Position numbers and translations under genes: made by a program. Under the pieces are notes generated by a model. The model was not told where the DNA came from. It did no database searches and saw only the letters and a list, made by a program, of their open reading frames with translations. A stretch of 64,000 nt of DNA, taken from NCBI RefSeq assembly GCF_003018255.1, contig NZ_CP027440.1; one strand, given 5' to 3'. Of this stretch, positions 7,677 through 55,999 are shown piece by piece. The stretch is from Escherichia coli (GTDB lineage Bacteria > Pseudomonadota > Gammaproteobacteria > Enterobacterales > Enterobacteriaceae). Numbering within the stretch: position 1 is the first letter of the stretch; the number at the start of each line of letters is the position of its first letter.

Positions 7677-10600
7677 GTGAAAGATTTATTAAAGTTTCTG
7701 AAAGCGCAGACTAAAACCGAAGAGTTTGATGCGATCAAAATTGCTCTGGCTTCGCCAGACATGATCCGTTCATGGTCTTTCGGTGAAGTTAAAAAGCCGG
7801 AAACCATCAACTACCGTACGTTCAAACCAGAACGTGACGGCCTTTTCTGCGCCCGTATCTTTGGGCCGGTAAAAGATTACGAGTGCCTGTGCGGTAAGTA
7901 CAAGCGCCTGAAACACCGTGGTGTCATCTGTGAGAAGTGCGGCGTTGAAGTGACCCAGACTAAAGTACGCCGTGAGCGTATGGGCCACATCGAACTGGCT
8001 TCCCCGACTGCGCACATCTGGTTCCTGAAATCGCTGCCGTCCCGTATCGGCCTGCTGCTCGATATGCCGCTGCGCGATATCGAACGCGTACTGTACTTCG
8101 AATCCTATGTGGTTATTGAAGGCGGTATGACCAACCTGGAACGCCAGCAGATCCTGACTGAAGAGCAGTATCTGGACGCGCTGGAAGAGTTCGGTGACGA
8201 ATTCGACGCGAAAATGGGTGCGGAAGCAATCCAGGCCCTGCTGAAGAGCATGGATCTGGAGCAAGAGTGCGAACAGCTGCGTGAAGAGCTGAACGAAACC
8301 AACTCCGAAACCAAGCGTAAAAAGCTGACCAAGCGTATCAAACTGCTGGAAGCGTTCGTTCAGTCTGGTAACAAACCAGAGTGGATGATCCTGACCGTTC
8401 TGCCGGTACTGCCGCCAGATCTGCGTCCGCTGGTTCCGCTGGATGGTGGTCGTTTCGCGACTTCTGACCTGAACGATCTGTATCGTCGCGTCATTAACCG
8501 TAACAACCGTCTGAAACGTCTGCTGGATCTGGCTGCGCCGGACATCATCGTACGTAACGAAAAACGTATGCTGCAGGAAGCGGTAGACGCCCTGCTGGAT
8601 AACGGTCGTCGCGGTCGTGCGATCACCGGTTCTAACAAGCGTCCTCTGAAATCTTTGGCCGACATGATCAAAGGTAAACAGGGTCGTTTCCGTCAGAACC
8701 TGCTCGGTAAGCGTGTTGACTACTCCGGTCGTTCTGTAATCACCGTAGGTCCATACCTGCGTCTGCATCAGTGCGGTCTGCCGAAGAAAATGGCGCTGGA
8801 GCTGTTCAAACCGTTCATCTACGGCAAGCTGGAACTGCGTGGTCTTGCTACCACCATTAAAGCTGCGAAGAAAATGGTTGAGCGCGAAGAAGCTGTCGTT
8901 TGGGATATCCTGGACGAAGTTATCCGCGAACACCCGGTACTGCTGAACCGTGCACCGACTCTGCACCGTCTGGGTATCCAGGCATTTGAACCGGTACTGA
9001 TCGAAGGTAAAGCTATCCAGCTGCACCCGCTGGTTTGTGCGGCATATAACGCCGACTTCGATGGTGACCAGATGGCAGTTCACGTACCGCTGACGCTGGA
9101 AGCCCAGCTGGAAGCGCGTGCGCTGATGATGTCTACCAACAACATCCTGTCCCCGGCGAACGGCGAACCAATCATCGTTCCGTCTCAGGACGTTGTACTG
9201 GGTCTGTACTACATGACCCGTGACTGTGTTAACGCCAAAGGCGAAGGCATGGTGCTGACTGGCCCGAAAGAAGCAGAACGTCTGTATCGCTCTGGTCTGG
9301 CCTCTCTGCATGCGCGCGTTAAAGTGCGTATCACCGAGTATGAAAAAGATGCTAACGGTGAATTAGTAGCGAAAACCAGCCTGAAAGACACGACTGTTGG
9401 CCGTGCCATTCTGTGGATGATTGTACCGAAAGGTCTGCCTTACTCCATCGTCAACCAGGCGCTGGGTAAAAAAGCAATCTCCAAAATGCTGAACACCTGC
9501 TACCGCATTCTCGGTCTGAAACCGACCGTTATTTTTGCGGACCAGATCATGTACACCGGCTTTGCATATGCAGCGCGTTCTGGTGCATCTGTTGGTATCG
9601 ATGACATGGTCATCCCGGAGAAGAAACACGAAATCATCTCCGAGGCAGAAGCAGAAGTTGCTGAAATTCAGGAGCAGTTCCAGTCTGGTCTGGTAACTGC
9701 GGGCGAACGCTACAACAAAGTTATCGATATCTGGGCTGCGGCGAACGATCGTGTATCCAAAGCGATGATGGATAACCTGCAAACTGAAACCGTTATTAAC
9801 CGTGACGGTCAGGAAGAGAAGCAGGTTTCCTTCAACAGCATCTACATGATGGCCGACTCCGGTGCGCGTGGTTCTGCGGCACAGATTCGTCAGCTTGCTG
9901 GTATGCGTGGTCTGATGGCGAAGCCGGATGGCTCCATCATCGAAACGCCAATCACCGCGAACTTCCGTGAAGGTCTGAACGTACTCCAGTACTTCATCTC
10001 CACCCACGGTGCTCGTAAAGGTCTGGCGGATACCGCACTGAAAACGGCGAACTCCGGTTACCTGACTCGTCGTCTGGTTGACGTGGCGCAGGACCTGGTG
10101 GTTACCGAAGACGATTGTGGTACTCATGAAGGTATCATGATGACTCCGGTTATCGAAGGTGGTGACGTTAAAGAGCCGCTGCGCGATCGCGTACTGGGTC
10201 GTGTAACTGCTGAAGACGTTCTGAAGCCGGGTACTGCTGATATCCTCGTTCCGCGCAACACGCTGCTGCACGAACAGTGGTGTGACCTGCTGGAAGAGAA
10301 CTCTGTCGACGCGGTTAAAGTACGTTCTGTTGTATCTTGTGACACCGACTTTGGTGTATGTGCGCACTGCTACGGTCGTGACCTGGCGCGTGGCCACATC
10401 ATCAACAAAGGTGAAGCAATCGGTGTTATCGCGGCACAGTCCATCGGTGAACCGGGTACACAGCTGACCATGCGTACGTTCCACATCGGTGGTGCGGCAT
10501 CTCGTGCGGCTGCTGAATCCAGCATCCAGGTGAAAAACAAAGGTAGCATCAAGCTCAGCAACGTGAAGTCGGTTGTGAACTCCAGCGGTAAACTGGTTAT

Positions 10601-11948: not shown

Positions 11949-12139
11949 TGGGTGTTATTCAGAGGGCAATTCTTCACGGAATTTTTAAGAAAGGCAGGGC
12001 GAAACGAGGAAGAAGCTTTTCGCCCTGGACAACATTCCTGCTGACGGGACTACCATAAAAAAACACAACGCTTTCAACAACCTTGCGTTTTTCATCTTCC
12101 GTAGCGGCTCGGAATAAATTTACGTTGTTACATTCTGTC

Positions 12140-23324: not shown

Positions 23325-24701
23325 ATGCGTTTTATGCAACGTTCTAAAGACTCCTTAGCTAAATGGTTAAGCGCGATCCTCCCCGTGGTCATTGTTGGGC
23401 TGGTGGGGCTGTTTGCGGTGACAGTGATTCGCGATTACGGGCGCGAGACTGCAGCCGCCAGACAAACGCTGCTGGAAAAAGGCAGTGTACTTATCCGTGC
23501 TCTCGAATCCGGCTCGCGCGTCGGCATGGGGATGCGCATGCATCATGCGCAGCAGCAGGCATTACTGGAAGAAATGGCCGGGCAGCCTGGTGTACGTTGG
23601 TTTGCGGTCACGGATGAACAAGGAACAATCGTGATGCATAGCAACTCCGGCATGGTGGGAAAACAGCTTTATTCCCCGCAGGAAATGCAGCAGTTACATC
23701 CGGGAGATGAAGAAGCGTGGCGGCGGATCGATAGCGCAGACGGCGAGCCTGTTCTGGAAATTTATCGCCAGTTTCAACCGATGTTTGCTGCTGGAATGCA
23801 CCGGATGCGCCATATGCAGCAGTATGCCGCGACACCACAAGCAATTTTTATCGCTTTCGACGCCAGTAACATTGTGAGTGCCGAAGATCGTGAGCAGAGA
23901 AACACCCTGATTATCCTCTTCGCCCTGGCGACGGTCTTGCTGGCAAGCGTGTTGTCATTCTTCTGGTATCGCCGATATCTGCGCTCGGGCCAGCTGTTGC
24001 AGGATGAAATGAAGCGCAAAGAGAAGCTGGTGGCACTGGGGCATCTTGCGGCAGGCGTTGCCCACGAAATCCGTAACCCACTTTCCTCGATTAAAGGGCT
24101 GGCGAAATACTTTGCCGAACGCGCGCCAGCAGGGGGAGAAGCGCATCAACTGGCGCAGGTGATGGCGAAAGAAGCCGACCGTTTAAACCGCGTGGTAAGC
24201 GAGTTGCTGGAACTGGTTAAGCCAACGCATCTGGCTTTGCAGGCGGTGGATCTCAACACGCTGATTAACCACTCATTACAGCTGGTAAGCCAGGATGCAA
24301 ACAGCCGGGAGATCCAGTTACGCTTTACCGCCAACGACACATTACCGGAAATTCAGGCCGATCCGGACAGGCTGACTCAGGTCCTGTTGAATCTCTATCT
24401 CAATGCTATTCAGGCGATTGGTCAGCATGGCGTGATTAGCGTGACGGCCAGCGAAAGCGGCACGGGTGTGAAAATCAGCGTTACCGACAGCGGTAAGGGA
24501 ATTGCGGCGGATCAGCTTGAAGCCATCTTCACCCCGTATTTCACCACGAAGGCCGAAGGCACCGGACTGGGGCTGGCGGTCGTGCATAATATTGTTGAAC
24601 AACACGGTGGTACAATTCAGGTCGCAAGCCAGGTGGGAAAAGGCGCAACGTTCACCCTCTGGCTTCCGGTCACTATTACGCGTAAGGACCCACAAGGATG
24701 A
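23325..24701 (+). CDS. zraS: Sensor histidine kinase ZraS
   Basis: 458-aa ORF with H-box (HEIRNPLSSIKG) and ATPase motifs; overlaps zraR start by 4 bp. Confidence 0.93.
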   Translation: MRFMQRSKDSLAKWLSAILPVVIVGLVGLFAVTVIRDYGRETAAARQTLLEKGSVLIRALESGSRVGMGMRMHHAQQQALLEEMAGQPGVRWFAVTDEQGTIVMHSNSGMVGKQLYSPQEMQQLHPGDEEAWRRIDSADGEPVLEIYRQFQPMFAAGMHRMRHMQQYAATPQAIFIAFDASNIVSAEDREQRNTLIILFALATVLLASVLSFFWYRRYLRSGQLLQDEMKRKEKLVALGHLAAGVAHEIRNPLSSIKGLAKYFAERAPAGGEAHQLAQVMAKEADRLNRVVSELLELVKPTHLALQAVDLNTLINHSLQLVSQDANSREIQLRFTANDTLPEIQADPDRLTQVLLNLYLNAIQAIGQHGVISVTASESGTGVKISVTDSGKGIAADQLEAIFTPYFTTKAEGTGLGLAVVHNIVEQHGGTIQVASQVGKGATFTLWLPVTITRKDPQG

Positions 24702-34534: not shown

Positions 34535-34546
34535 CAAATTAAGCGA

Positions 34547-34574
34547 AAGGCCATCCGAAAGGATGGCCTTTTTG
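34547..34574 (+). terminator. rRNA operon intrinsic terminator
   Basis: Hairpin aaggccatcc-gaaa-ggatggcctt followed by ttt. Confidence 0.7.
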
Positions 34575-34657
34575 CATTGGCGCAGAAAAAATGCCGGATG
34601 CGACGCTGGCGCGTCTGCTCCAGCTTACGCAAGCACGATAGCACGATAGGGGGCAGC

Positions 34658-35101
34658 TTATTCCCCTACATATGCCAGATTCAGCAATGGATACGGTTTC
34701 CCCAAATCGTCCACCTCAGAGCGTCCCGTAACCTTAAAACCCATCTTCTTATAGAACCCAACAGCCTGCTTATTTTGCTCATTAACATTGGTTGTCAGTT
34801 CCGGTGCCATCGAGAGCGCATGTTCCACCAGCATCCGACCCACGCCGCAGCCGCGCACATCAGGATCGATAAACAGCGCATCCATATGCTGCCCACTTAA
34901 CAACATAAACCCAACCGGCCGATCCCGCTCATTAACCGCGACCCACAACGGCGCTTCCGGCAGGAAGGAACGAACTAGCTCCTCCAGCTCGGCCCGATAC
35001 GCTGCTGATAAAAAATCGTGAGTGGCATCGACAGAACGACACCAAATCGCAACGAGCTCCTCCCCTTCCTCATGCCGTGAGCGGCGAATACTAATAACCA
35101 T
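34658..35101 (-). CDS. yjaB: GNAT family N-acetyltransferase YjaB
   Basis: 147-aa ORF with acetyl-CoA binding motif (RGCGVGRMLVEHA); synteny between rrnE and metA. Confidence 0.9.
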   Translation of the reverse strand: MVISIRRSRHEEGEELVAIWCRSVDATHDFLSAAYRAELEELVRSFLPEAPLWVAVNERDRPVGFMLLSGQHMDALFIDPDVRGCGVGRMLVEHALSMAPELTTNVNEQNKQAVGFYKKMGFKVTGRSEVDDLGKPYPLLNLAYVGE

Positions 35102-39411: not shown

Positions 39412-41331
<1,920 letters not shown>

Positions 41332-41347
41332 ATCAGAGGCGAAAAAG

Positions 41348-47995: not shown

Positions 47996-48685
47996 TTAAA
48001 AACGGTGACCCGCTTCCAGCGGAACCGCTTCTTCACCAGCCTTAAACACATAAGTGGTGTTCGGGCCACCCAGCGTTGCGTGACCTTTATTCACTGTGAT
48101 CCAGTTACCTTCCGGTAGACCAATAATTGTGAGTTCTGGCGCGACGACCAGCAGTTCGCGAATACGCTGTTCACGGGTTTCACCTTTATGGCCTTCCGGC
48201 AGCGCGTTGGTGAAGTGCGGGTTGATTTGCAACGGGAACAGATTCAGCGCATCGAAACCTTGTGGATCGACAATCGGCATATCGTTGGTGGTACGAATGG
48301 TTGGGCAAGCAAGGTTAGCGCCTGCGCTCCAGCCAATATACAGCGCGCCACGTTTCACCACGTCAGTAATGGGTGCCAGCAGCCCGCGCTCGCGGCACTG
48401 TTTCAGCAACTGGAAAGTATTCCCGCCGCCGACAATCACGATCTCAGCATTTTCAATCGCGGCAACGGGATCGACAACGCTATGAATACCGGTGACAGAA
48501 ACACCCAGCGGAGCGAGAACCGCAGCCGTTTTCGCTGTGTAATCATCCCAGGTCTGCGTTACGCCAGCGAAAGGGATAAACACCGCTGAGCGGCGACCCT
48601 GCAACTGTTCAGCAATTAGCGGCAGTGCATGTTCCAGCCAGGCTTTACCCGGCAGCGTCGAGTTACTCAATAAAAGCAGTTCCAT
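47996..48685 (-). CDS. pepE: Dipeptidase E (alpha-aspartyl dipeptidase)
   Basis: 229-aa ORF recognised as PepE. Confidence 0.95.
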
Positions 48686-48799
48686 TACTTCTCCGGTTAG
48701 TAAGAAATCACGGAAGGCATGCTACCACTGCGAATTTAACCACTTACTGACATGGCTCACGATGTCACGTATTGCACAGGCGCTGAGACTGATGACAAA

Positions 48800-48905
48800 C
48801 ACAGCATTGCCTGATGCGCTACGCTTACCTGGCCTACCAGATAACTGCAATATATTGAATTTTCGAGATTATGTAGGCCGAATAAGGCTTCATTCCGCAT
48901 CCGGC
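48800..48905. repeat. REP-like palindromic units between pepE and the sor operon
   Basis: gcctgatgcgctacgc...gtaggccgaataaggc...cgcatccggcat. Confidence 0.5.
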
Positions 48906-49065
48906 ATAAACAATGTGTACTTTGCCACCAATTTGAGCGCCCCTTAAGGCGCTGATATTTTTTATCCTTCTCATGCAAATTGTGCTGCTTCAGCAATCAG
49001 CCGCACATCCGGTCGCGAAGTTGCCGCGGCGACCAGCCAGCGACATGCAGAGTTAAGTAGCGCGA

Positions 49066-50295
49066 TTAATCATGGGAAATTGCCTCTGCATGAGTGAGCA
49101 GATATTGCTCCGCCTCACCGGACCAGATCCCCTGATGACGCGCCAGAATTGCCGCCAGTGCTTGATCCTGAATCTGCGTGAGTGACATAAGCGGCAGGTA
49201 TTTCCCGGTATACACCAGCTTTTTGCCGCCGCCGACGGCAGGCAATTCAAGCGTGGTTTCGCCCGCGGCATTCAGCCCAAGAATATGTGTTACCACTTTT
49301 GCGGCCTGCACTTTTTTCTCTTCGATCAGTTTGACCGCCGCGCGCATGTCGTCGGTATTGCCGCCTGACGTGCCCACGTAGTGGGTAAATGCATAATGCA
49401 CATCGTAGAAATTAATTGGCGCGCTGAAATGTTTATCCTGCGGTCCGGCGAAGAAATTCAGGCAACCATCTGTCGCCAGCAAGGAAGAGGCGAGAGTCAC
49501 CAGTCCTTCATTAGGCACAAAGACGAAAATATCATCGAAGCCGTGACCGCCACTCAGCGCCATTAACGTATCAAATGCTGCATCAGTGGCATTGAGATAA
49601 TGAATCAGTGTTTGCGATTCTGATGGATAGTGCTTGCGCGCATAACTCAATTTATCGTTGTCGGTATCGGTAATGACGAGCAGCGACGGGTTAACGGGTC
49701 CATGCAGCGCATAATCAATCGCCAACAGTCCCATTGGTCCGGTGCCGCCGAGGATCAGCGTGCGCCCTTGCGGGCGAATCCCCATCGTGTGGTTATAACT
49801 ACCTTCCTGAAGATGATAGTTGGCGTTGAACGCGCCAATCACGCAGGAAAGCGGTTCAACCAGCGAGCCTTCAAAATAGGTTTCGCCGTCGTATGCCAGC
49901 AGGCAATCTTGTTCCATAACCTCATTTGGGATAACCACATGTGTGGCTTCACCGCCCACCCACGGGAAGGAGTAGCCGGGGCAGTCCGGGCGGTCGGGGA
50001 GTTGCAGGTTGGCCTGAATCACATAACGCTGACCCGGCTGGAATTTGTGCTGCCACTTTTTACCCACGGCCAGAATATCGCCGCAAAACTCGTGGCCGAT
50101 GATGATGGGGTTGGTCGCCACATCGTCGGGTACTTTTTTATGGTTTTCACCCAGATTGGCCTCTTTCCAGGAAGAGAGGCACAGGCTGTCGGTGACCACC
50201 GTCGCGAGGATTTCATCCTCCTGCATTTCAGGAAGATCAAAGGTTTCCAGGCGTAAATCACGTTTACCATAAAGACGCAGAGCTGTTGTTTTCAT
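49066..50295 (-). CDS. sorE: L-sorbose-1-phosphate reductase (zinc-dependent medium-chain dehydrogenase)
   Basis: 409-aa product from MKTTALRLYG; MDR/ADH-like fold (GHEFCGDI...); last gene of sorCDFBAME order. Confidence 0.85.
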   Translation of the reverse strand: MKTTALRLYGKRDLRLETFDLPEMQEDEILATVVTDSLCLSSWKEANLGENHKKVPDDVATNPIIIGHEFCGDILAVGKKWQHKFQPGQRYVIQANLQLPDRPDCPGYSFPWVGGEATHVVIPNEVMEQDCLLAYDGETYFEGSLVEPLSCVIGAFNANYHLQEGSYNHTMGIRPQGRTLILGGTGPMGLLAIDYALHGPVNPSLLVITDTDNDKLSYARKHYPSESQTLIHYLNATDAAFDTLMALSGGHGFDDIFVFVPNEGLVTLASSLLATDGCLNFFAGPQDKHFSAPINFYDVHYAFTHYVGTSGGNTDDMRAAVKLIEEKKVQAAKVVTHILGLNAAGETTLELPAVGGGKKLVYTGKYLPLMSLTQIQDQALAAILARHQGIWSGEAEQYLLTHAEAISHD

Positions 50296-50346
50296 AAACC
50301 ACCTCATGTTGAGCGATGGCCCCGGCAGTCGTGCCGGGGCGAAGAA

Positions 50347-51171
50347 TCAGGACAGGAAGCCCAGCACATTGCCGATAATCCCTAAGCCAAACAGGGCGAA
50401 AATCAGCCATACCGGGTTAATTTTTTTGTTGAGCAGACGAACCATCAGTAGCGTCAGACCGAGCGCCAGCAAACCAGGGCAAAGTTGGTCGAGAATGTTC
50501 TGCACGGTCATGGTGACGGTGGAGCCATCGGCGGCATGCGTTTGTGAAACCACCAACGGTACGTTGATTGACGTCCATTTGGTGACCAGCACGCCCATCA
50601 CAAACAGTCCGAGAATCGACGCGCCTTCGGTGAGTTTTTGCAGCACATTCCCGCCCATATCGCTGACGATATTCACCCCTTTGCGAAAGCCGAGCTGTAG
50701 GCCATACCACTTCATCGCCAGACGCACCGCGTTGAAAATAAAGAAGAACAGCAGGGGGCCGAGAATGTTGCCCGAAAGTGCCAGAGATGCGCCGAGCGCG
50801 GCGGTAATCGGGCGCAGCGTTCCCCAGACCAGTGGATCGCCAACCCCTGCCAACGGTCCCATCAGGCCGACTTTGATGCCGTTAATGGTACCGTCATCAA
50901 TTTCCGCGCCGTTGGCCCGCGCCTCTTCCATGGCGGCAGTGACGCCGATGACCGGGCCACATACGGCTGGCGTGGTATTGAAGAACACCAGGTGTCGCCT
51001 GAGCGCCGCAACCTGATCCTCTTTTAATGGGTAAAGTCGCTTGATGGCGGGGATCATGTCGTAGCAAAAACCCAGCCCATGAATACGTTCAAAGTTAAAG
51101 GACGCCTGTTGCAGGTTGGAGCGCAGAAACATGTTCACCAGATCGCTGCGTGTAATTTTTCTCTGTTCCAT
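50347..51171 (-). CDS. sorM: PTS sorbose-specific EIID component (mannose family)
   Basis: N-terminus MEQRKITRSDLVNMFLRSNLQQASFNFERIHGLGFCYDMIPAIKRLY parallels ManZ-type IID. Confidence 0.85.
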   Translation of the reverse strand: MEQRKITRSDLVNMFLRSNLQQASFNFERIHGLGFCYDMIPAIKRLYPLKEDQVAALRRHLVFFNTTPAVCGPVIGVTAAMEEARANGAEIDDGTINGIKVGLMGPLAGVGDPLVWGTLRPITAALGASLALSGNILGPLLFFFIFNAVRLAMKWYGLQLGFRKGVNIVSDMGGNVLQKLTEGASILGLFVMGVLVTKWTSINVPLVVSQTHAADGSTVTMTVQNILDQLCPGLLALGLTLLMVRLLNKKINPVWLIFALFGLGIIGNVLGFLS

Positions 51172-51181
51172 GATGGCTCCG

Positions 51182-51979
51182 TTAATTGTCAAGTTGGTCA
51201 AGGGCGGTGGAGGCGGTGGCCTGGAGTTGAGGTTCAGCTTTACGCCACTGTGGATTTAGCTGGATGTAGACCAGGGCCATGATCACGCCGACGCCACCGA
51301 ACGCCAGCAGACTGAGATCGAGGTAGCCACCTGCGAGGAAACCGAGGAAAAAGAAAGGCATCAAATATTTCACGCCCATCATGCGAAGCACCATGGCGTA
51401 ACCGACCACCACGATAAAACCGCCAGCAATCTGCAGTCCACGGGTCACAAATTCGGGAATGGCGCTCAGCATATTGCTCACCATATCAGCGCTGACGAAC
51501 AGCGAGACAATCAGTGCCGGAATAGCAACGCGCAGTGCCTGCACGCCAAGCGCGGAGACATGCAGAATATCGAGAGTGCGAAACCGTGCTTCTTCCGCTG
51601 CTTTATCCGCCGCGTGCTGGAACACTACGGTGATGGTACGGGCAAACACCGTCAGCACCTGGCCTGCCGCAGCCACAGGCAACGCGATGGCGATTCCGGT
51701 GGCGATGCTTTGCTGACCAACGATAACCAGAATGGCGGAGATTATGCTGGCGAGTGCAGAATCCGGAGATTGCGCCGCGCCGACGTTCATCCAGCCGAGA
51801 GCTATCAATTCCAGCGTACCACCGAGCATAATTCCGGTTTTTAAATCACCGAGAATTAAACCAATCACCGTACAGGCAATTAACGGACGATGAGTCTGAA
51901 ATTCATCCAGCACGCTGCCCATTCCGGCAATACAGGAAAAAAGAAATATAGCAATGATTTGTAGGGTACTTATTTCCAT
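51182..51979 (-). CDS. sorA: PTS sorbose-specific EIIC component (mannose family)
   Basis: 265-aa polytopic membrane ORF of ManY/IIC type. Confidence 0.85.
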   Translation of the reverse strand: MEISTLQIIAIFLFSCIAGMGSVLDEFQTHRPLIACTVIGLILGDLKTGIMLGGTLELIALGWMNVGAAQSPDSALASIISAILVIVGQQSIATGIAIALPVAAAGQVLTVFARTITVVFQHAADKAAEEARFRTLDILHVSALGVQALRVAIPALIVSLFVSADMVSNMLSAIPEFVTRGLQIAGGFIVVVGYAMVLRMMGVKYLMPFFFLGFLAGGYLDLSLLAFGGVGVIMALVYIQLNPQWRKAEPQLQATASTALDQLDN

Positions 51980-52044
51980 GATTTGTCACCTTTTAAGTGT
52001 CGTCATCCCTGCCTGTTAAAGCATATGTACACAGGCGCTATTAT

Positions 52045-52539
52045 TTAATTTGCGATTAACTGTTCGTTTATTTTGTCGATAATATTGATTGAGGGATCTG
52101 ACGCTACGACGCGTAAATCCAGTATGACGCCAAGATTATTTAACTCATGAAATGCGTTAATATCATCATCATCTAATGAAACCGCTTTGGTTAACTGTTT
52201 TTTACCGGGCCGCCAGGCCATGCCGCCAATATTCAGGGTGTCTATTTTTACCCCCTGGCGAACCATCGCTAAGGCATCCTGTGGGCGAGTGAAAAGATAA
52301 AAAACGGTTTCGTCCTGATATTGCGGGTTGTGATAAACCGCGACGGCTTTTTCAATATTGACCACGTTAACCTTCATTCCCGGTGGCGCAGCCTGACGCA
52401 ATAATGTCCGGCGCACTTCATCGTTATAAACTTCGTCATTGCAGATAATAATGTGCTGGGCATTAGCCACTTTCGACCAGACGGTAGTGACCTGGCCGTG
52501 GATCAGACGGTCATCAATGCGGGCGAGCGTAATGTTCAT
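52045..52539 (-). CDS. sorB: PTS sorbose-specific EIIB component
   Basis: 164-aa ORF with N-terminal MNITLARIDDRLIHGQV (phosphorylatable His of mannose-family IIB). Confidence 0.85.
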   Translation of the reverse strand: MNITLARIDDRLIHGQVTTVWSKVANAQHIIICNDEVYNDEVRRTLLRQAAPPGMKVNVVNIEKAVAVYHNPQYQDETVFYLFTRPQDALAMVRQGVKIDTLNIGGMAWRPGKKQLTKAVSLDDDDINAFHELNNLGVILDLRVVASDPSINIIDKINEQLIAN

Positions 52540-52946
52540 CAGAAATCCTCCTCTGCCGTTGCCAGTTGTTTCCAGACAACGCAGGTTTGCTTTGCGATTT
52601 GCGTCAGGTGTTCACACAGTTCATCAACATTCATGCTGTGCTGGTTATCAACCAGTTCGAGCGCCAGCGGCAGAGAAAGGCCGCTGATTACCCGCAGACG
52701 AGGATTGCGCATCGCAAGCATCGCTGCCGCATTCCACGGGCTGCCGCACTGTAAATCCACGGCAATCAGCCACTCATCTTGATTGTGAATGCTTACTAAC
52801 TTTTCCAGCTTTGCTACGATGTCTCCGGCGTTTTCACCGGGCACAAATTCAACGGCTTCAACATTGGCGTTGCCGTAAACCATCTGAACCGATTCCAGCA
52901 TGGCGCAAGCTAATTTGCCGTGGGCACAAAAAATGGCGTTGACCAT
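52539..52946 (-). CDS. sorF: PTS sorbose-specific EIIA component
   Basis: 135-aa ORF, mannose-family IIA N-terminus (MVNAIFCAHGKLA). Confidence 0.85.
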   Translation of the reverse strand: MVNAIFCAHGKLACAMLESVQMVYGNANVEAVEFVPGENAGDIVAKLEKLVSIHNQDEWLIAVDLQCGSPWNAAAMLAMRNPRLRVISGLSLPLALELVDNQHSMNVDELCEHLTQIAKQTCVVWKQLATAEEDF

Positions 52947-52955
52947 AAAGCCTCC

Positions 52956-53762
52956 TTAGCCGCGCGTTTTGCCGCCCGCAATGTTAGTGGTTACTCCGGT
53001 GATATAGCTGGCGCGTTGAGACAGCAGATAACAAACAAAATCAGCGACTTCTGCTAATCTTCCGGCGCGCCCAATAGGAATGGCGTTTTTGGTATAGCCT
53101 TCACGCAGCTGCTCGACGGTGATATTGCGCGTCCACGCCAGCGCCTCTTCATATTCCGGCGTGCGTAGCCCGGTTTTTTCCAGAATCCCGGGCGCGATAC
53201 CGACCACACGGATGCCGTGTTTACCCAGCTCTTTCGACCAGGAGCGCGTGAAGCTATTGAGCGCGGCTTTGGTAGCGGCGTAACAGCTTTGGCCTTCTGA
53301 GCCTTCCAGTCCACTTTCTGAGGAAACATTCACAATCACGCCATCATGTTGTTTGACCATCTGTCGCGCCACCGCCTGCGACATCAGAAAAACGCCTTTC
53401 TGGTTGATATTGACCATTTTTTCGAATGCAGCTTCGTTGAGTTCATACTGCCCGGCAGGCGCTTTCTCATCGACCAGCAGACGCGGGAAATTGACCCCGG
53501 CGTTATTGACCAGACCGTCGATGCGACCAAAACGCTGGATAATTTCCGCTACCGTATGATTTACCTCTTTGGCGCTGGAAATATCGGTCGGCCAAAACTG
53601 ATAGCCTTTATGACCTTCATATTGTCCATCGCCACCGTGAATATCGACCATCTGTACATTCGCGCCTTGTGCTAATAATTCCTCTACAATCGCCAGACCA
53701 ATACCGCATGCGCCGCCGGTGACGATAATGATTTTATCCTGCAAATTTAACCACGTTTGCAT
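52956..53762 (-). CDS. sorD: Short-chain dehydrogenase/reductase (D-glucitol-6-phosphate dehydrogenase of sor operon)
   Basis: 268-aa SDR with TGGACGIG Rossmann motif and YxxxK catalytic motif. Confidence 0.85.
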   Translation of the reverse strand: MQTWLNLQDKIIIVTGGACGIGLAIVEELLAQGANVQMVDIHGGDGQYEGHKGYQFWPTDISSAKEVNHTVAEIIQRFGRIDGLVNNAGVNFPRLLVDEKAPAGQYELNEAAFEKMVNINQKGVFLMSQAVARQMVKQHDGVIVNVSSESGLEGSEGQSCYAATKAALNSFTRSWSKELGKHGIRVVGIAPGILEKTGLRTPEYEEALAWTRNITVEQLREGYTKNAIPIGRAGRLAEVADFVCYLLSQRASYITGVTTNIAGGKTRG

Positions 53763-53831
53763 AACAGACTCCTGATTTTAGATAATAGGGACCCGCCGTA
53801 ATTTTTATTACGATAAACATCGGGAAGATTT

Positions 53832-54779
53832 TTATTTCAGTAATAGTTCAGCTGTGCTGCTATTCGTTACCAGACAATTAATATATTTTCCACGCAGTGT
53901 ACCAATAATTCCGCTGTATTTTTCTTCACTCATGGCAATGCCAATGGAATACCGCGCCTGCTTTAATTTATTCATTTCGATAGAGAGTGTTTTTTCGCTC
54001 ATATTCGTTTCAACCATTGCGCCGTGAATATCAAAAAAGCGCGAGCAAATATCGCCAGCAACCTGGCGGGCATTCAGGTCGTCACTCTCTTCACCACCAT
54101 AAAACGCATGCCAGTTAGCGCCGTCGCGAATGGCCGGTGAGCCAATTCCCACCAGGGCGACATCCAGATTATCCCAGTAGGCAGAGATGGTTTTAAAGTG
54201 CTGAGACTGCATGATCCCATTACGAATTAATGGGTTATCCAGCAGAGCCGGAAAATCCGCGAGATGCGATTCCCCTTTCAGCTTCGCTGCCGCGCTGTAG
54301 GTTAATGTGTTTACGTGATAGCGGCTTTCGAGTTTACCGGACGGTCCGCCAATAATTGGTACGCAGATTAACTGCCGCGATTGCCCCGCCTGCGGCAAGT
54401 TTTCAACCAGTGCGCTCACCGCGCGACCCCAGGAAAAACCGACAATATCGCCAGGCTCCAGCAAGCGATCCAGCAGTTGCGCGCCGTGTAACCCCATCAT
54501 CGCCAGTTGAGTCTCTTCATCCTCATCATTTCCCGACACCACCACAACGTCTTTCAGGCCAAACTTTTGCTTCAGTTGCTGCTCCAGCCAGAGATTTTCG
54601 TTGTAGTCATAGTTGATGGCGATGGTGACAATTCCCTGATCGCGGCCTCGTTTAAGCAAGCGGCTGATGGTGGTGCGGTAAATACCCAGTTCGCGCGCGA
54701 TTTGCGCCTGCGTCATATCCTGTTCGTAATAGAGTTGGGCAATCTTCACAATCAAACGGATATCGTCACTGTTTTCCAT
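53832..54779 (-). CDS. sorC: SorC-family transcriptional regulator of the sorbose operon
   Basis: 315-aa product from MENSDDIRLIVKIAQLYYEQDMTQAQIARELGIYRTTISRLLKRGR (N-terminal HTH plus sugar-binding domain). Confidence 0.85.
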   Translation of the reverse strand: MENSDDIRLIVKIAQLYYEQDMTQAQIARELGIYRTTISRLLKRGRDQGIVTIAINYDYNENLWLEQQLKQKFGLKDVVVVSGNDEDEETQLAMMGLHGAQLLDRLLEPGDIVGFSWGRAVSALVENLPQAGQSRQLICVPIIGGPSGKLESRYHVNTLTYSAAAKLKGESHLADFPALLDNPLIRNGIMQSQHFKTISAYWDNLDVALVGIGSPAIRDGANWHAFYGGEESDDLNARQVAGDICSRFFDIHGAMVETNMSEKTLSIEMNKLKQARYSIGIAMSEEKYSGIIGTLRGKYINCLVTNSSTAELLLK

Positions 54780-55126
54780 TGCCGCCTCCTGGTTCTGCAC
54801 ATTTGTGCAAATACGCTTTCTCACCGCTTGATCTGATATAACCCCATCATGAGGGCCTTTCAAAGCGATTTTTCACTCTTTGCATGGGGAGAAATAGCGC
54901 TTTCTCTTGCACATTTGTTTCTCTGCGTAGTAGTCATCAGCACAGGTGTGCAGCGATTCGTAATATGTTGATTATCCTTATTTTGCCAGGCAAATTTGCA
55001 TCGTACTTCCGGAGACACTTTTGTGATAAAAGGCGTGGCAGATCACATTTAATTTCGACGTTGCCGCATAACCCTGTTTTTCCCCGCTAAGAGGTACGGT
55101 ATATTCCGCGTTTTACAGGAGAATTT

Positions 55127-55999
55127 ATGCTGCCCGACTCATCAGTCCGTTTAAATAAATACATCAGCGAAAGCGGAATTTGCTCACGCCGCGAAGCGGA
55201 TCGCTATATCGAGCAAGGCAATGTGTTCCTTAATGGCAAGCGAGCCACCATTGGCGATCAGGTGAAACCCGGCGACGTTGTGAAAGTAAATGGTCAGTTG
55301 ATTGAACCTCGGGAAGCCGAAGATTTGGTACTTATCGCCCTGAACAAGCCCGTCGGTATTGTCAGCACCACCGAAGATGGCGAGCGCGATAACATTGTCG
55401 ATTTCGTTAACCACAGCAAACGCGTATTCCCGATTGGCCGCCTGGATAAAGACTCCCAGGGGCTGATTTTCCTCACCAATCACGGCGATCTGGTGAATAA
55501 GATCCTCCGTGCGGGTAACGATCATGAGAAAGAGTATCTGGTGACGGTCGATAAACCGATTACCGATGAATTTATTCGTGGTATGGGGGCGGGGGTGCCA
55601 ATCCTCGGGACAGTGACTAAAAAGTGCAAAGTCAAAAAAGAAGCGCCATTTGTCTTCCGCATTACCCTGGTGCAGGGGCTGAACCGTCAGATCCGTCGCA
55701 TGTGCGAGCACTTTGGTTACGAAGTGAAAAAGCTGGAACGTACGCGCATTATGAACGTCAGTTTAAGCGGCATTCCGCTGGGGGAGTGGCGCGATTTAAC
55801 CGACGATGAGTTAATCGACCTCTTTAAGCTCATCGAAAATTCCTCTTCCGAGGCAAAACCTAAAGCGAAGGCCAAACCGAAAACGGTAGGCATCAAACGT
55901 CCAGTCGTTAAGATGGAAAAAACGGCGGAAAAAGGCGGTCGCCCGGCGTCCAACGGTAAGCGTTTTACCTCGCCGGGGCGCAAAAAGAAGGGGCGTTAA
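55127..55999 (+). CDS. rluF: 23S rRNA pseudouridine synthase F
   Basis: 290-aa ORF with S4 domain and RsuA-type catalytic region; Lys-rich C-terminus. Confidence 0.93.

Follow-up and report, generated by a model that had tools for sequence, protein, structure and literature searches.

The L-sorbose operon between pepE and rluF of Escherichia coli, most likely ancestral at this site and lost in K-12-type strains

The seven-gene block between pepE and rluF in the window (the whole 64-kb stretch of Escherichia coli DNA that was analysed) is, with a probability of about 0.92, the operon sorCDFBAME for L-sorbose (sor) on the E. coli chromosome, an ancestral locus that was lost in K-12-type strains. 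The operon is an already known system of textbook standing; the initial annotation had called it known rather than novel, in agreement with RefSeq naming and with published work on sorbose in E. coli. The ancestral-locus reading turns round the usual view of sor as an acquired accessory marker, and it would amount to a stepwise decay in which an ancestral Enterobacteriaceae operon of eight genes came down to seven plus a scar and then to nothing. In addition, recent papers tie sorbose use to how fit and virulent high-risk lineages are.

The block lies between the core genes pepE (dipeptidase E; 47996-48685, minus strand, from the ORF list and the annotated pepE) and rluF (23S rRNA pseudouridine synthase; 55127-55999, plus strand, from the ORF list and annotation). 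The interval between them is exactly 48686-55126 (6441 bp) and holds seven intact, full-length, co-directional minus-strand ORFs with ATG starts, separated by gaps of -1 to 69 bp. From the first gene of the operon onwards, these are sorC (SorC-family regulator; 53832-54779, 315 aa), sorD (D-glucitol (sorbitol)-6-phosphate dehydrogenase of the SDR type; 52956-53762, 268 aa), sorF (PTS EIIA; 52539-52946, 135 aa), sorB (PTS EIIB with an RLIHGQ phospho-histidine motif; 52045-52539, 164 aa), sorA (PTS EIIC; 51182-51979, 265 aa), sorM (PTS EIID; 50347-51171, 274 aa) and sorE (L-sorbose 1-phosphate reductase of the zinc-ADH family; 49066-50295, 409 aa). PGAP gives the same sizes for a nearly identical E. 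coli RefSeq genome, where the locus is annotated as sorE together with a mannose/fructose/sorbose-family PTS.

SorC is 86.7% identical to Klebsiella pneumoniae SorC (PDB 2w48) over 315/315 aa (E = 5e-183, 610 bits), and SorB is 86.8% identical to the sorbose-specific IIB of the same species (PDB 1nrz); a look-up of the exact 2w48 sequence for its genomic context returned no record. All four PTS subunits exceeded the cut-offs of their NCBIfam models (TIGR00824 for IIA with 148 bits, TIGR00854 for IIB with 222 bits, TIGR00822, EII-Sor, for IIC with 423 bits, and TIGR00828 for IID with 469 bits), and SorD scored 498 bits against a cut-off of 304 with NF004817 ('sorbitol-6-phosphate dehydrogenase subunit'). 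For SorE and SorC no NCBIfam model reached its cut-off, and their names therefore rest on orthology and RefSeq naming. SorE orthologues carry ADH_N/ADH_zinc_N domains, the cluster with the exact SorE sequence is named sorE, L-sorbose 1-phosphate reductase, and that of the exact SorF sequence PTS sorbose transporter subunit IIA. Each exact Sor protein sequence recurs within E. coli, on between 87 and more than 1000 contigs. The initial annotation was thus right about the seven co-directional minus-strand genes between pepE and rluF, their order and sizes, their families (SorC regulator, SDR, mannose-family EIIA/IIB/IIC/IID, zinc reductase) and their match to the Klebsiella/E. coli sor operon.

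In the sorbose pathway, L-sorbose is taken up and phosphorylated to L-sorbose 1-phosphate by the mannose-family PTS made of SorF, SorB, SorA and SorM, SorE reduces this product to D-glucitol 6-phosphate, and SorD oxidises the latter to D-fructose 6-phosphate, which enters glycolysis, while SorC is a repressor of the operon without sorbose and an activator with it. The pathway is also stated in PMC13410766. Experiments in E. coli found the seven sor genes to be the most strongly sorbose-induced genes, with growth on sorbose in an ST131 strain, none in a sorE deletion mutant, and slow growth in an ST10 strain that had received the operon at the same site (PMC12817954). Sorbose-inducible growth is thereby on record for other E. 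coli with the operon (PMC12817954, PMC2808357). This strain and the other sor-positive E. coli (~53% of those sequenced) can probably use L-sorbose. It is unlikely that the operon is cryptic or non-functional here despite its intact genes and that the strain is phenotypically sorbose-negative: a related allele does have a regulatory lesion (IAI39 lacks 84 bp holding a conserved promoter-like block) and decay of the sor locus is ongoing, as seen in a scar of the eighth gene, sdhL, but all seven ORFs are full length and encode proteins that recur widely among E. coli contigs, the regulatory region matches that of another E. coli over its entire 347 bp (100% identity) with every cross-genus conserved block kept, and sorbose growth was reported for the ST131 strain, from whose lineage sdhL is reported absent (PMC12817954).

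Upstream of sorC, the alignment of intergenic regions across genera pointed to several candidate regulatory elements, all read on the minus strand. The putative sor promoter (54835-54863) coincides with the conserved block GGTTATATCAGATCA and consists of a -35 element, TTGAAA (54863-54858), a 17-bp spacer and a -10 element, TATATC (54840-54835); it falls in the 84-bp stretch absent from IAI39, which lies between two copies of the repeat GAGAAAGCG (54906-54898 and 54822-54814). The region upstream of sorC gave no promoter in a strict sigma-70 consensus scan. The palindrome TGCACAAATGTGCA (54796-54809), recovered from the rluF-sorC intergenic alignment and a motif search, comes after the putative promoter and before the sorC ribosome-binding site and is nearly invariant in 16 sequences that cover six genera, with Pseudocitrobacter vendiensis showing a single A-to-T change, which makes it a candidate SorC operator; we infer both the promoter and the operator from conservation. 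Farther upstream (54908-55050), the same alignment and motif search yielded blocks kept across genera with presumed regulatory roles, namely CAAATGTGCA (54917-54908), GCACACCTGTGC (54951-54940), TGCAAATTTGC (55000-54990), CACAAAAGTG (55025-55016) and AAATGTGATC (55050-55041), the last of which is near-invariant (15/17 sequences) and resembles a CRP half-site. With one mismatch allowed, CAAATGTGCA has 3 matches in the 64-kb window against 6.6 expected, all within the region upstream of sorC; it is not enriched window-wide, and only this clustering and its cross-genus conservation carry meaning. SorC would probably act via conserved palindromes of the GCAC-N4-GTGC type, upstream of and just before sorC, and the promoter that they flank would be weak and activator-dependent.

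In E. coli K-12 MG1655, the pepE-rluF spacer measures 211 bp and has no sor block, as the initial annotation had claimed and in agreement with an earlier report that the operon adjoins rluF in strain 042 and is missing from MG1655 (PMC2808357). The blastn alignment with K-12 continues through the pepE-proximal spacer (pepE upstream region, 48686-48775) up to 48775, with 4 mismatches within its last 90 bp, and resumes at 55092 in the rluF-proximal spacer (55092-55126), where a conserved GGTATATTC block is likely the rluF -10 region. The segment that differs from K-12 (48776-55091, 6316 bp) stands in place of 86 bp private to K-12, so the difference is a replacement and not a clean insertion. 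These 86 bp were also considered as a decayed ccdA remnant, a reading that we do not adopt since its local alignment scores were reached by 939 and 139 of 1000 shuffles; ccdA is the gene before pepE in Pseudocitrobacter, in some Klebsiella and in Escherichia sp. E1V33. Over the whole window, the sor block is the sole block of >300 bp that K-12 lacks, and its description as the only clear accessory block holds in this sense.

Presence and absence of the block are almost balanced among complete E. coli genomes (n = 5426), with 2865 being sor-positive and 2557 having the K-12-type spacer. This distribution would fit a horizontally acquired accessory island that entered, in non-K-12 lineages, a pepE-rluF spacer at first empty and K-12-like, as would the mosaic nature of the region (whose individual segments are 94-100% identical to other E. 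coli), given that recombination moves alleles, and the operon has been treated as an accessory marker that is more frequent in pathogenic lineages (PMC12817954). We nevertheless regard such an acquisition as quite improbable. Among the hallmarks of genomic islands (integrase/transposase, tRNA/att target, flanking repeats, atypical composition), no integrase-like or transposase genes were present among the ORFs, searches for a tRNA gene and for repeats of at least 8 bp at the segment's junctions found none, and the G+C content of the segment (51.2%) does not deviate from that of the rest of the window (53.2%) in the way of an island; the block is not a mobile island. The private 86 bp of K-12 likewise speak against a clean insertion into an empty site, and the K-12 spacer keeps the pepE-upstream sequence CTTTCCAGAAGCAATG, common to outgroups and missing from the allele in the window.

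The sor operon is instead most likely an old Enterobacteriaceae resident of the pepE-rluF site that K-12-type strains have lost, because 17 other Enterobacteriaceae species carry it at this very site. The order rluF, sorCDFBAME-sdhL, pepE was found in these 17 species loci, which belong to Escherichia, Klebsiella, Raoultella, Pseudocitrobacter, Enterobacter and Citrobacter, and the other sampled Escherichia (E. albertii, E. whittamii, MOD1-EC7003) have this fuller eight-gene form. The divergence of the operon is like that of its flanks: compared with K. michiganensis, the sor genes show 73-84% and the flanking genes 80-82% nucleotide identity. Towards Pseudocitrobacter the sor genes (87-93%) are closer than the flanks (80-86%), from which intergenus exchange by homologous recombination is possible. 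The polarity of loss over gain was inferred from synteny and divergence rather than from a formal ancestral-state reconstruction. The initial annotation had proposed an alignment with MG1655 in order to define insertion junctions; the boundaries could be set in this way (48776-55091), but the implied polarity of insertion was wrong, as loss of an ancestral locus is favoured.

Between sorE and pepE, the window contains an unannotated 112-bp scar of sdhL (48962-49073, minus strand), a gene for an SdhL-class shikimate 5-dehydrogenase-like protein, which was detected by tblastn of intact homologues and by alignment with the sdhL of IAI39. The initial annotation had overlooked it. The scar is composed of 58 bp of the 5' end and 54 bp of the 3' end, with an out-of-frame join between codons 1-19 and the last 18 codons and a premature TAA at codon 7; relative to IAI39, 701 bp are deleted internally (junction 49016|49015), and the start of sdhL and the stop of sorE share 8 nt. 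The window holds only this remnant and no intact ORF of ~270 aa matching NF009202/PDB 1npy, and sdhL is here a pseudogene remnant and not a member gene of the SdhL class. The identical deletion junction is present in at least 2335 E. coli genomes, i.e., the scar is common to thousands of genomes, while an intact sdhL follows sorE in 177; seven genes plus scar is the majority allele among sor-positive E. coli. On the loss reading, an ancestral eight-gene locus would have undergone the 701-bp deletion that left the scar in most sor-positive E. coli, and the whole sor locus would have gone in K-12-type strains.

Just past the scar lies a G+C-rich hairpin (48936-48953), a terminator-like site with its T-run on the plus strand side, which is the conserved end-of-operon hairpin, since homologous ones follow sdhL in K. 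michiganensis and Pseudocitrobacter. Closer to pepE, a BIME-like pair of inverted REP elements (48809-48906) consists of repeats at 48809-48837 and 48873-48906 with a 35-bp spacer, which we take to resemble the REP consensus. The pair is the unique match to the REP-like pattern and is absent at this site from IAI39 and K-12. An Rfam scan of 48400-55400 with E values up to 1 gave no match.

The intact eighth gene of the related loci encodes a full-length orthologue of Haemophilus influenzae HI0607 SdhL (PDB 1npy; E = 2e-112; NF009202, 457 bits), a class for which, to our knowledge, no physiological role has been established. That the sor locus was ancestrally an eight-gene one, whose SdhL-class last gene is functionally tied to L-sorbose/ketohexose metabolism, is a proposal to which we give even odds. 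The 8-nt overlap between the sdhL start and the sorE stop, the retention of sdhL after sorE in 17 species and its induction by sorbose in ST648 count for such a tie; against a strict one, sdhL appears dispensable for sorbose growth, with the ST131 strain reported to lack it, and Kluyvera has kept only a sorC-like gene and sdhL, without the PTS. If the eight-gene proposal is true, what the 2025 literature calls an 'ST648-specific insertion' would be the ancestral state and the window would carry the majority allele, with sdhL destroyed by a single 701-bp deletion. In addition, the locus offers a conserved genomic context for the enigmatic SdhL class, which could guide a search for its substrate.

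A wrong assignment to sorbose of some other mannose-family PTS (man, aga or fructoselysine type) is very improbable: the NCBIfam IIA-IID subfamily models are generic (mannose/fructose/sorbose) and alone do not set the substrate, but the Aga, galactosamine and ManXYZ equivalog models all stayed far under their cut-offs, the closest solved IIB to SorB is the sorbose-specific one (302 bits, vs. 169 bits for the mannose IIB), the regulator is SorC itself by its match to 2w48, the linked SorD and SorE enzymes fit the sorbose pathway, and E. coli genetics link these genes to sorbose (PMC12817954). Both observations that the initial annotation had named as contradicting it, i.e., a different mannose-family PTS at this locus or the same genes in K-12, failed to appear.

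The sor operon of K. pneumoniae, sorCDFBAME, was reportedly described by Sprenger and Lengeler, by Wehmeier and Lengeler, and by Wöhrl et al. in 1990. The window resembles it in gene order, protein sizes, predicted pathway and the dual control by SorC, while the protein sequences of the E. coli orthologue have diverged by ~13%. In the Klebsiella group, the genomes examined have an intact sdhL after sorE and, in some cases, ccdAB before pepE, whereas the window has the scar followed by the BIME. HI0607 SdhL of H. influenzae belongs to the same shikimate dehydrogenase-like class as the intact sdhL of related loci, of which the window keeps 112 bp alone, with a premature stop and a frameshift. 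The sor loci of E. coli 042, ST131 and ST648 (PMC2808357, PMC12817954, PMC13410766) have the same genes at the same rluF-adjacent position as the window, whose best matches among complete E. coli genomes reach 99.1% identity across the whole 6441 bp, but ST648 and IAI39-type strains differ from it by an intact sdhL and the lack of the BIME, and IAI39 also by the 84 bp missing from its regulatory region. E. coli ManXYZ shares with the window the PTS family and the membrane architecture (IIC + IID), and SorB is clearly related to the IIB domain of ManX. However, IIA and IIB are fused in Man and are separate proteins in the four-protein mannose-family EII of the window, the ManX, ManZ and Aga equivalog models scored below their cut-offs, and the sor system, unlike ManXYZ, is linked to the dedicated enzymes SorE and SorD and to the SorC regulator.

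The pepE-rluF interval of the window (48686-55126, 6441 bp) holds seven ORFs, all co-directional on the minus strand, namely sorC (53832-54779, 315 aa), sorD (52956-53762, 268 aa), sorF (52539-52946, 135 aa), sorB (52045-52539, 164 aa), sorA (51182-51979, 265 aa), sorM (50347-51171, 274 aa) and sorE (49066-50295, 409 aa), and is flanked by pepE (47996-48685, minus strand) and rluF (55127-55999, plus strand). The ORF listing confirmed the gene block and the protein sizes of the initial annotation, and the PGAP CDS of the best-matching complete E. coli genome (99.1% identity across all 6441 bp) are the same seven ORFs. The corresponding gap in K-12 MG1655 is only 211 bp long and, as stated in the initial annotation, lacks sor genes.

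The proposed identification as the L-sorbose PTS operon was borne out by family models, Klebsiella pneumoniae matches and the RefSeq name of sorE. SorF, SorB, SorA and SorM pass the curated NCBIfam cut-offs for mannose/fructose/sorbose IIA, IIB, IIC and IID, respectively; a different mannose-family PTS, the alternative originally named, is contradicted by ManX/ManZ and Aga/galactosamine equivalog scores far under the cut-offs for the window's PTS proteins. SorB is 86.8% identical to the sorbose-specific IIB of K. pneumoniae (PDB 1nrz), its sorbose IIB match being clearly stronger than its mannose IIB match, and SorC aligns end to end with K. pneumoniae SorC (PDB 2w48, E = 5e-183, 86.7% identity). 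SorD scores 498 bits with the NCBIfam model "sorbitol-6-phosphate dehydrogenase subunit" (cut-off 304). No NCBIfam HMM reached its cut-off for SorE; its orthologue, however, is named sorE, L-sorbose 1-phosphate reductase, in RefSeq, identical SorE sequences in public collections bear this name, and the orthologues have ADH_N and ADH_zinc_N domains. Expected motifs were present in the translations of SorF (CAHG), SorB (RLIHGQ), SorD (TGGACGIG, YAATK) and SorE (GHEFCG, GGTGPMG), and identical copies of all seven Sor proteins (7/7) are already recorded from many E. coli assemblies.

SorC acts as a repressor in the absence of sorbose and as an activator in its presence. L-sorbose is phosphorylated by the PTS on entry, the resulting L-sorbose 1-phosphate is reduced by SorE to D-glucitol 6-phosphate, and this is oxidised by SorD to D-fructose 6-phosphate (PMC13410766). 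The window's operon is predicted to encode this PTS, SorE and SorD route to D-fructose 6-phosphate, under SorC control.

On the pepE side the window matches K-12 up to position 48775, and the match picks up again at 55092, which delimits a strain-specific segment of 6316 bp (48776-55091) whose K-12 counterpart is 86 bp of its own sequence. The junctions that the initial annotation had expected for an insertion could therefore be defined exactly, but the two alleles are related by replacement rather than clean insertion, because K-12 has these 86 bp of private sequence there. At the junctions (48775/55092), neither a direct nor an inverted repeat of ≥ 8 bp is shared, no tRNA gene was found, no integrase-like gene occurs among the window ORFs, and an Rfam scan of the sor region gave no match. 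The G+C content is 51.2% in the segment vs. 53.2% in the remaining window.

Among the complete E. coli genomes compared (n = 5426), the sor interval (6441 bp) was covered ≥ 80% in 2865 and the K-12 spacer ≥ 80% in 2557, sor-positive and K-12-type genomes together amounting to 5422. An eighth gene, sdhL, was matched in 2865 genomes, only 177 of them over ≥ 80% of its length (IAI39, CE10, ST648, and others). Three alleles exist at pepE-rluF in E. coli: an eight-gene allele (177 genomes), seven genes plus an sdhL scar, which is the state of the window (~2690 genomes; 353 sor-positive genomes match neither intact sdhL nor an 80-bp probe across the scar junction), and an empty allele (2557 genomes). 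The region is a recombination mosaic: sorC, sorD, and yjbD of the window are 100% identical to those of strain DETEC-S792 and pepE only 96.2%, and over the 5' half of pepE the window shares 99.1% identity with K-12.

Relatives of the Sor proteins were looked up, followed by a PepE-alignment scan with one genome per species in which genes were mapped by tblastn. The look-up placed the operon between rluF and pepE also in Klebsiella michiganensis and Pseudocitrobacter vendiensis, and in the scan sorCDFBAME plus the eighth gene occupied this position in 17 species loci, i.e., Escherichia (E. albertii, E. whittamii, Escherichia sp. MOD1-EC7003, and one divergent "E. coli" representative), four Klebsiella, three Raoultella, three Pseudocitrobacter, two Enterobacter sp. 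and one Citrobacter sp. A short rluF-pepE spacer without sor genes was found in seven species loci, among them those of Escherichia sp. E1V33, C. koseri and S. enterica subsp. arizonae. Six Kluyvera species (loci L013, L014, L016, L026, L027, and L028) have only a sorC-like gene (70% identity) and, 23 bp after it, an intact sdhL, without PTS, sorD or sorE. They are the mirror image of E. coli, where all but sdhL is kept.

Compared with K. michiganensis at the nucleotide level, the window's sor genes are 73-84% and its flanking genes 80-82% identical, a pattern that would be expected under vertical descent. With Pseudocitrobacter, the sor genes share somewhat more identity than the flanks do, which makes occasional intergeneric exchange by homologous recombination possible. 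The K-12 spacer keeps a pepE-upstream sequence, CTTTCCAGAAGCAATG, that is common to E1V33 and the outgroups and absent from the window's allele, and its rluF-proximal part is Klebsiella-like. The simplest reading of these alignments is that sor would be an old resident locus lost in the K-12-type lineage. The published distribution, in which the operon occurs in > 86% of genomes in all phylogroups other than A (9.6%) and B1 (12.1%), fits such a loss (PMC12817954). In Pseudocitrobacter vendiensis, Kluyvera intermedia, K. michiganensis and K. grimontii (loci L005/L030, L014, L021, and L037), sdhL and pepE are separated by a ccdA-ccdB toxin-antitoxin pair; the 395-bp spacer of E1V33, which has no sor genes, retains a fragment of ccdA (locus L010, 5268-5390).

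The eighth gene has ~270 codons, and its start lies 8 nt ahead of the sorE stop codon in 17/17 full loci. It passes NCBIfam NF009202 "shikimate 5-dehydrogenase" (457 bits, cut-off 306) and is orthologous over its full length to Haemophilus influenzae HI0607 SdhL (PDB 1npy, E = 2e-112). In the window, tblastn and alignment with E. coli IAI39, where sdhL is intact, revealed a 112-bp scar (48962-49073): the first 21 codons (49073-49011) contain an in-frame stop, MINRAT*LCMSLAGRRGNFAT, and the last 17 codons (49015-48965) abut this piece in another frame, the internal deletion of 701 bp corresponding to 9059-9759 of the IAI39 locus (L008), with its junction at 49016|49015. As the 80-bp junction probe matches end to end in at least 2335 complete E. 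coli genomes, none of them annotated there, the scar is one old event common to most sor-positive E. coli. While sdhL has been called an ST648-specific, sorbose-induced insertion (PMC12817954), our comparisons indicate that its presence is ancestral.

Downstream of the scar, a conserved end-of-operon hairpin is kept (48936-48953), followed by a BIME-like REP pair (48809-48837 and 48873-48906) without counterpart in IAI39 or K-12. The BIME is bracketed by a 21-nt imperfect inverted repeat (48779-48799 and 48921-48941, 76% complementary), whose outer arm overlaps the hairpin.

Alignment of the rluF-sorC intergenic regions of the window, IAI39 and 15 other species loci uncovered several blocks that are invariant or nearly so across genera. 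They comprise a CRP half-site-like block, AAATGTGATC (55050-55041), and short GCAC-N4-GTGC-type palindromes, CACAAAAGTG (55025-55016), TGCAAATTTGC (55000-54990), GCACACCTGTGC (54951-54940), CAAATGTGCA (54917-54908) and TGCACAAATGTGCA (54809-54796). With one mismatch allowed, all three matches (3/3) of CAAATGTGCA in the 64-kb window fall inside the 347-bp rluF-sorC region. Since SorC-family repressors bind as tetramers to paired palindromic half-operators (PMC11229326), these palindromes are reasonable candidate SorC operators. Another conserved block, GGTTATATCAGATCA, contains a putative -10 (54840-54835) with a TTGAAA -35 (54863-54858) 17 bp upstream, plausibly a weak promoter, although a strict consensus scan found no promoter upstream of sorC. 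In IAI39 (L008 3032-3294 vs. window 54814-54906), 84 bp of this region are deleted between two GAGAAAGCG direct repeats, including the promoter-like GGTTATATCAGATCA block conserved across genera, and sor regulation may therefore be altered in IAI39-type strains.

The window differs from K-12 at further sites. At 11953-11975, 23 bp stand against 945 bp in K-12 (NC_000913.3 4189626-4190570) with yjaZ (htrC) and the small RNA sroH; yjaZ is present in 3738/5426 complete E. coli genomes, and its absence is thus a common polymorphism. Also absent are yjaA (34542-34662, 121 bp vs. 518 bp in K-12) and arpA (41319-41340, 22 bp vs. 2489 bp), aceK abutting iclR as in IAI39. We take the lack of both Clermont markers, arpA and yjaA, as a sign of an F/G or atypical B2 background and not of A or B1. 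Between rluF and yjbD, which abut with zero gap (55999/56000), K-12 has ~122-132 extra bp, possibly a REP-type element. Near the zraP-zraS boundary, 23617-23900 (~284 bp) gave no megablast alignment to K-12 (305 bp there) and probably represents strongly diverged sequence.

In ST131 and ST648, sorbose induces the seven sor genes more strongly than any others; ST131, reported to be a lineage without sdhL, grows on sorbose minimal medium, a sorE deletion mutant does not grow on sorbose, and an ST10 strain with the operon inserted at the same site grows slowly on it (PMC12817954). In strain 042 the operon adjoins rluF, MG1655 lacks it, and the Biolog phenotypes match (PMC2808357). The operon itself is an already known system, as the initial annotation had correctly judged; new here are the exact junctions, the evidence for an ancestral rather than inserted locus, and an sdhL scar that carries no annotation, and only the conserved linkage of an SdhL-class enzyme with the sor operon is mildly novel.
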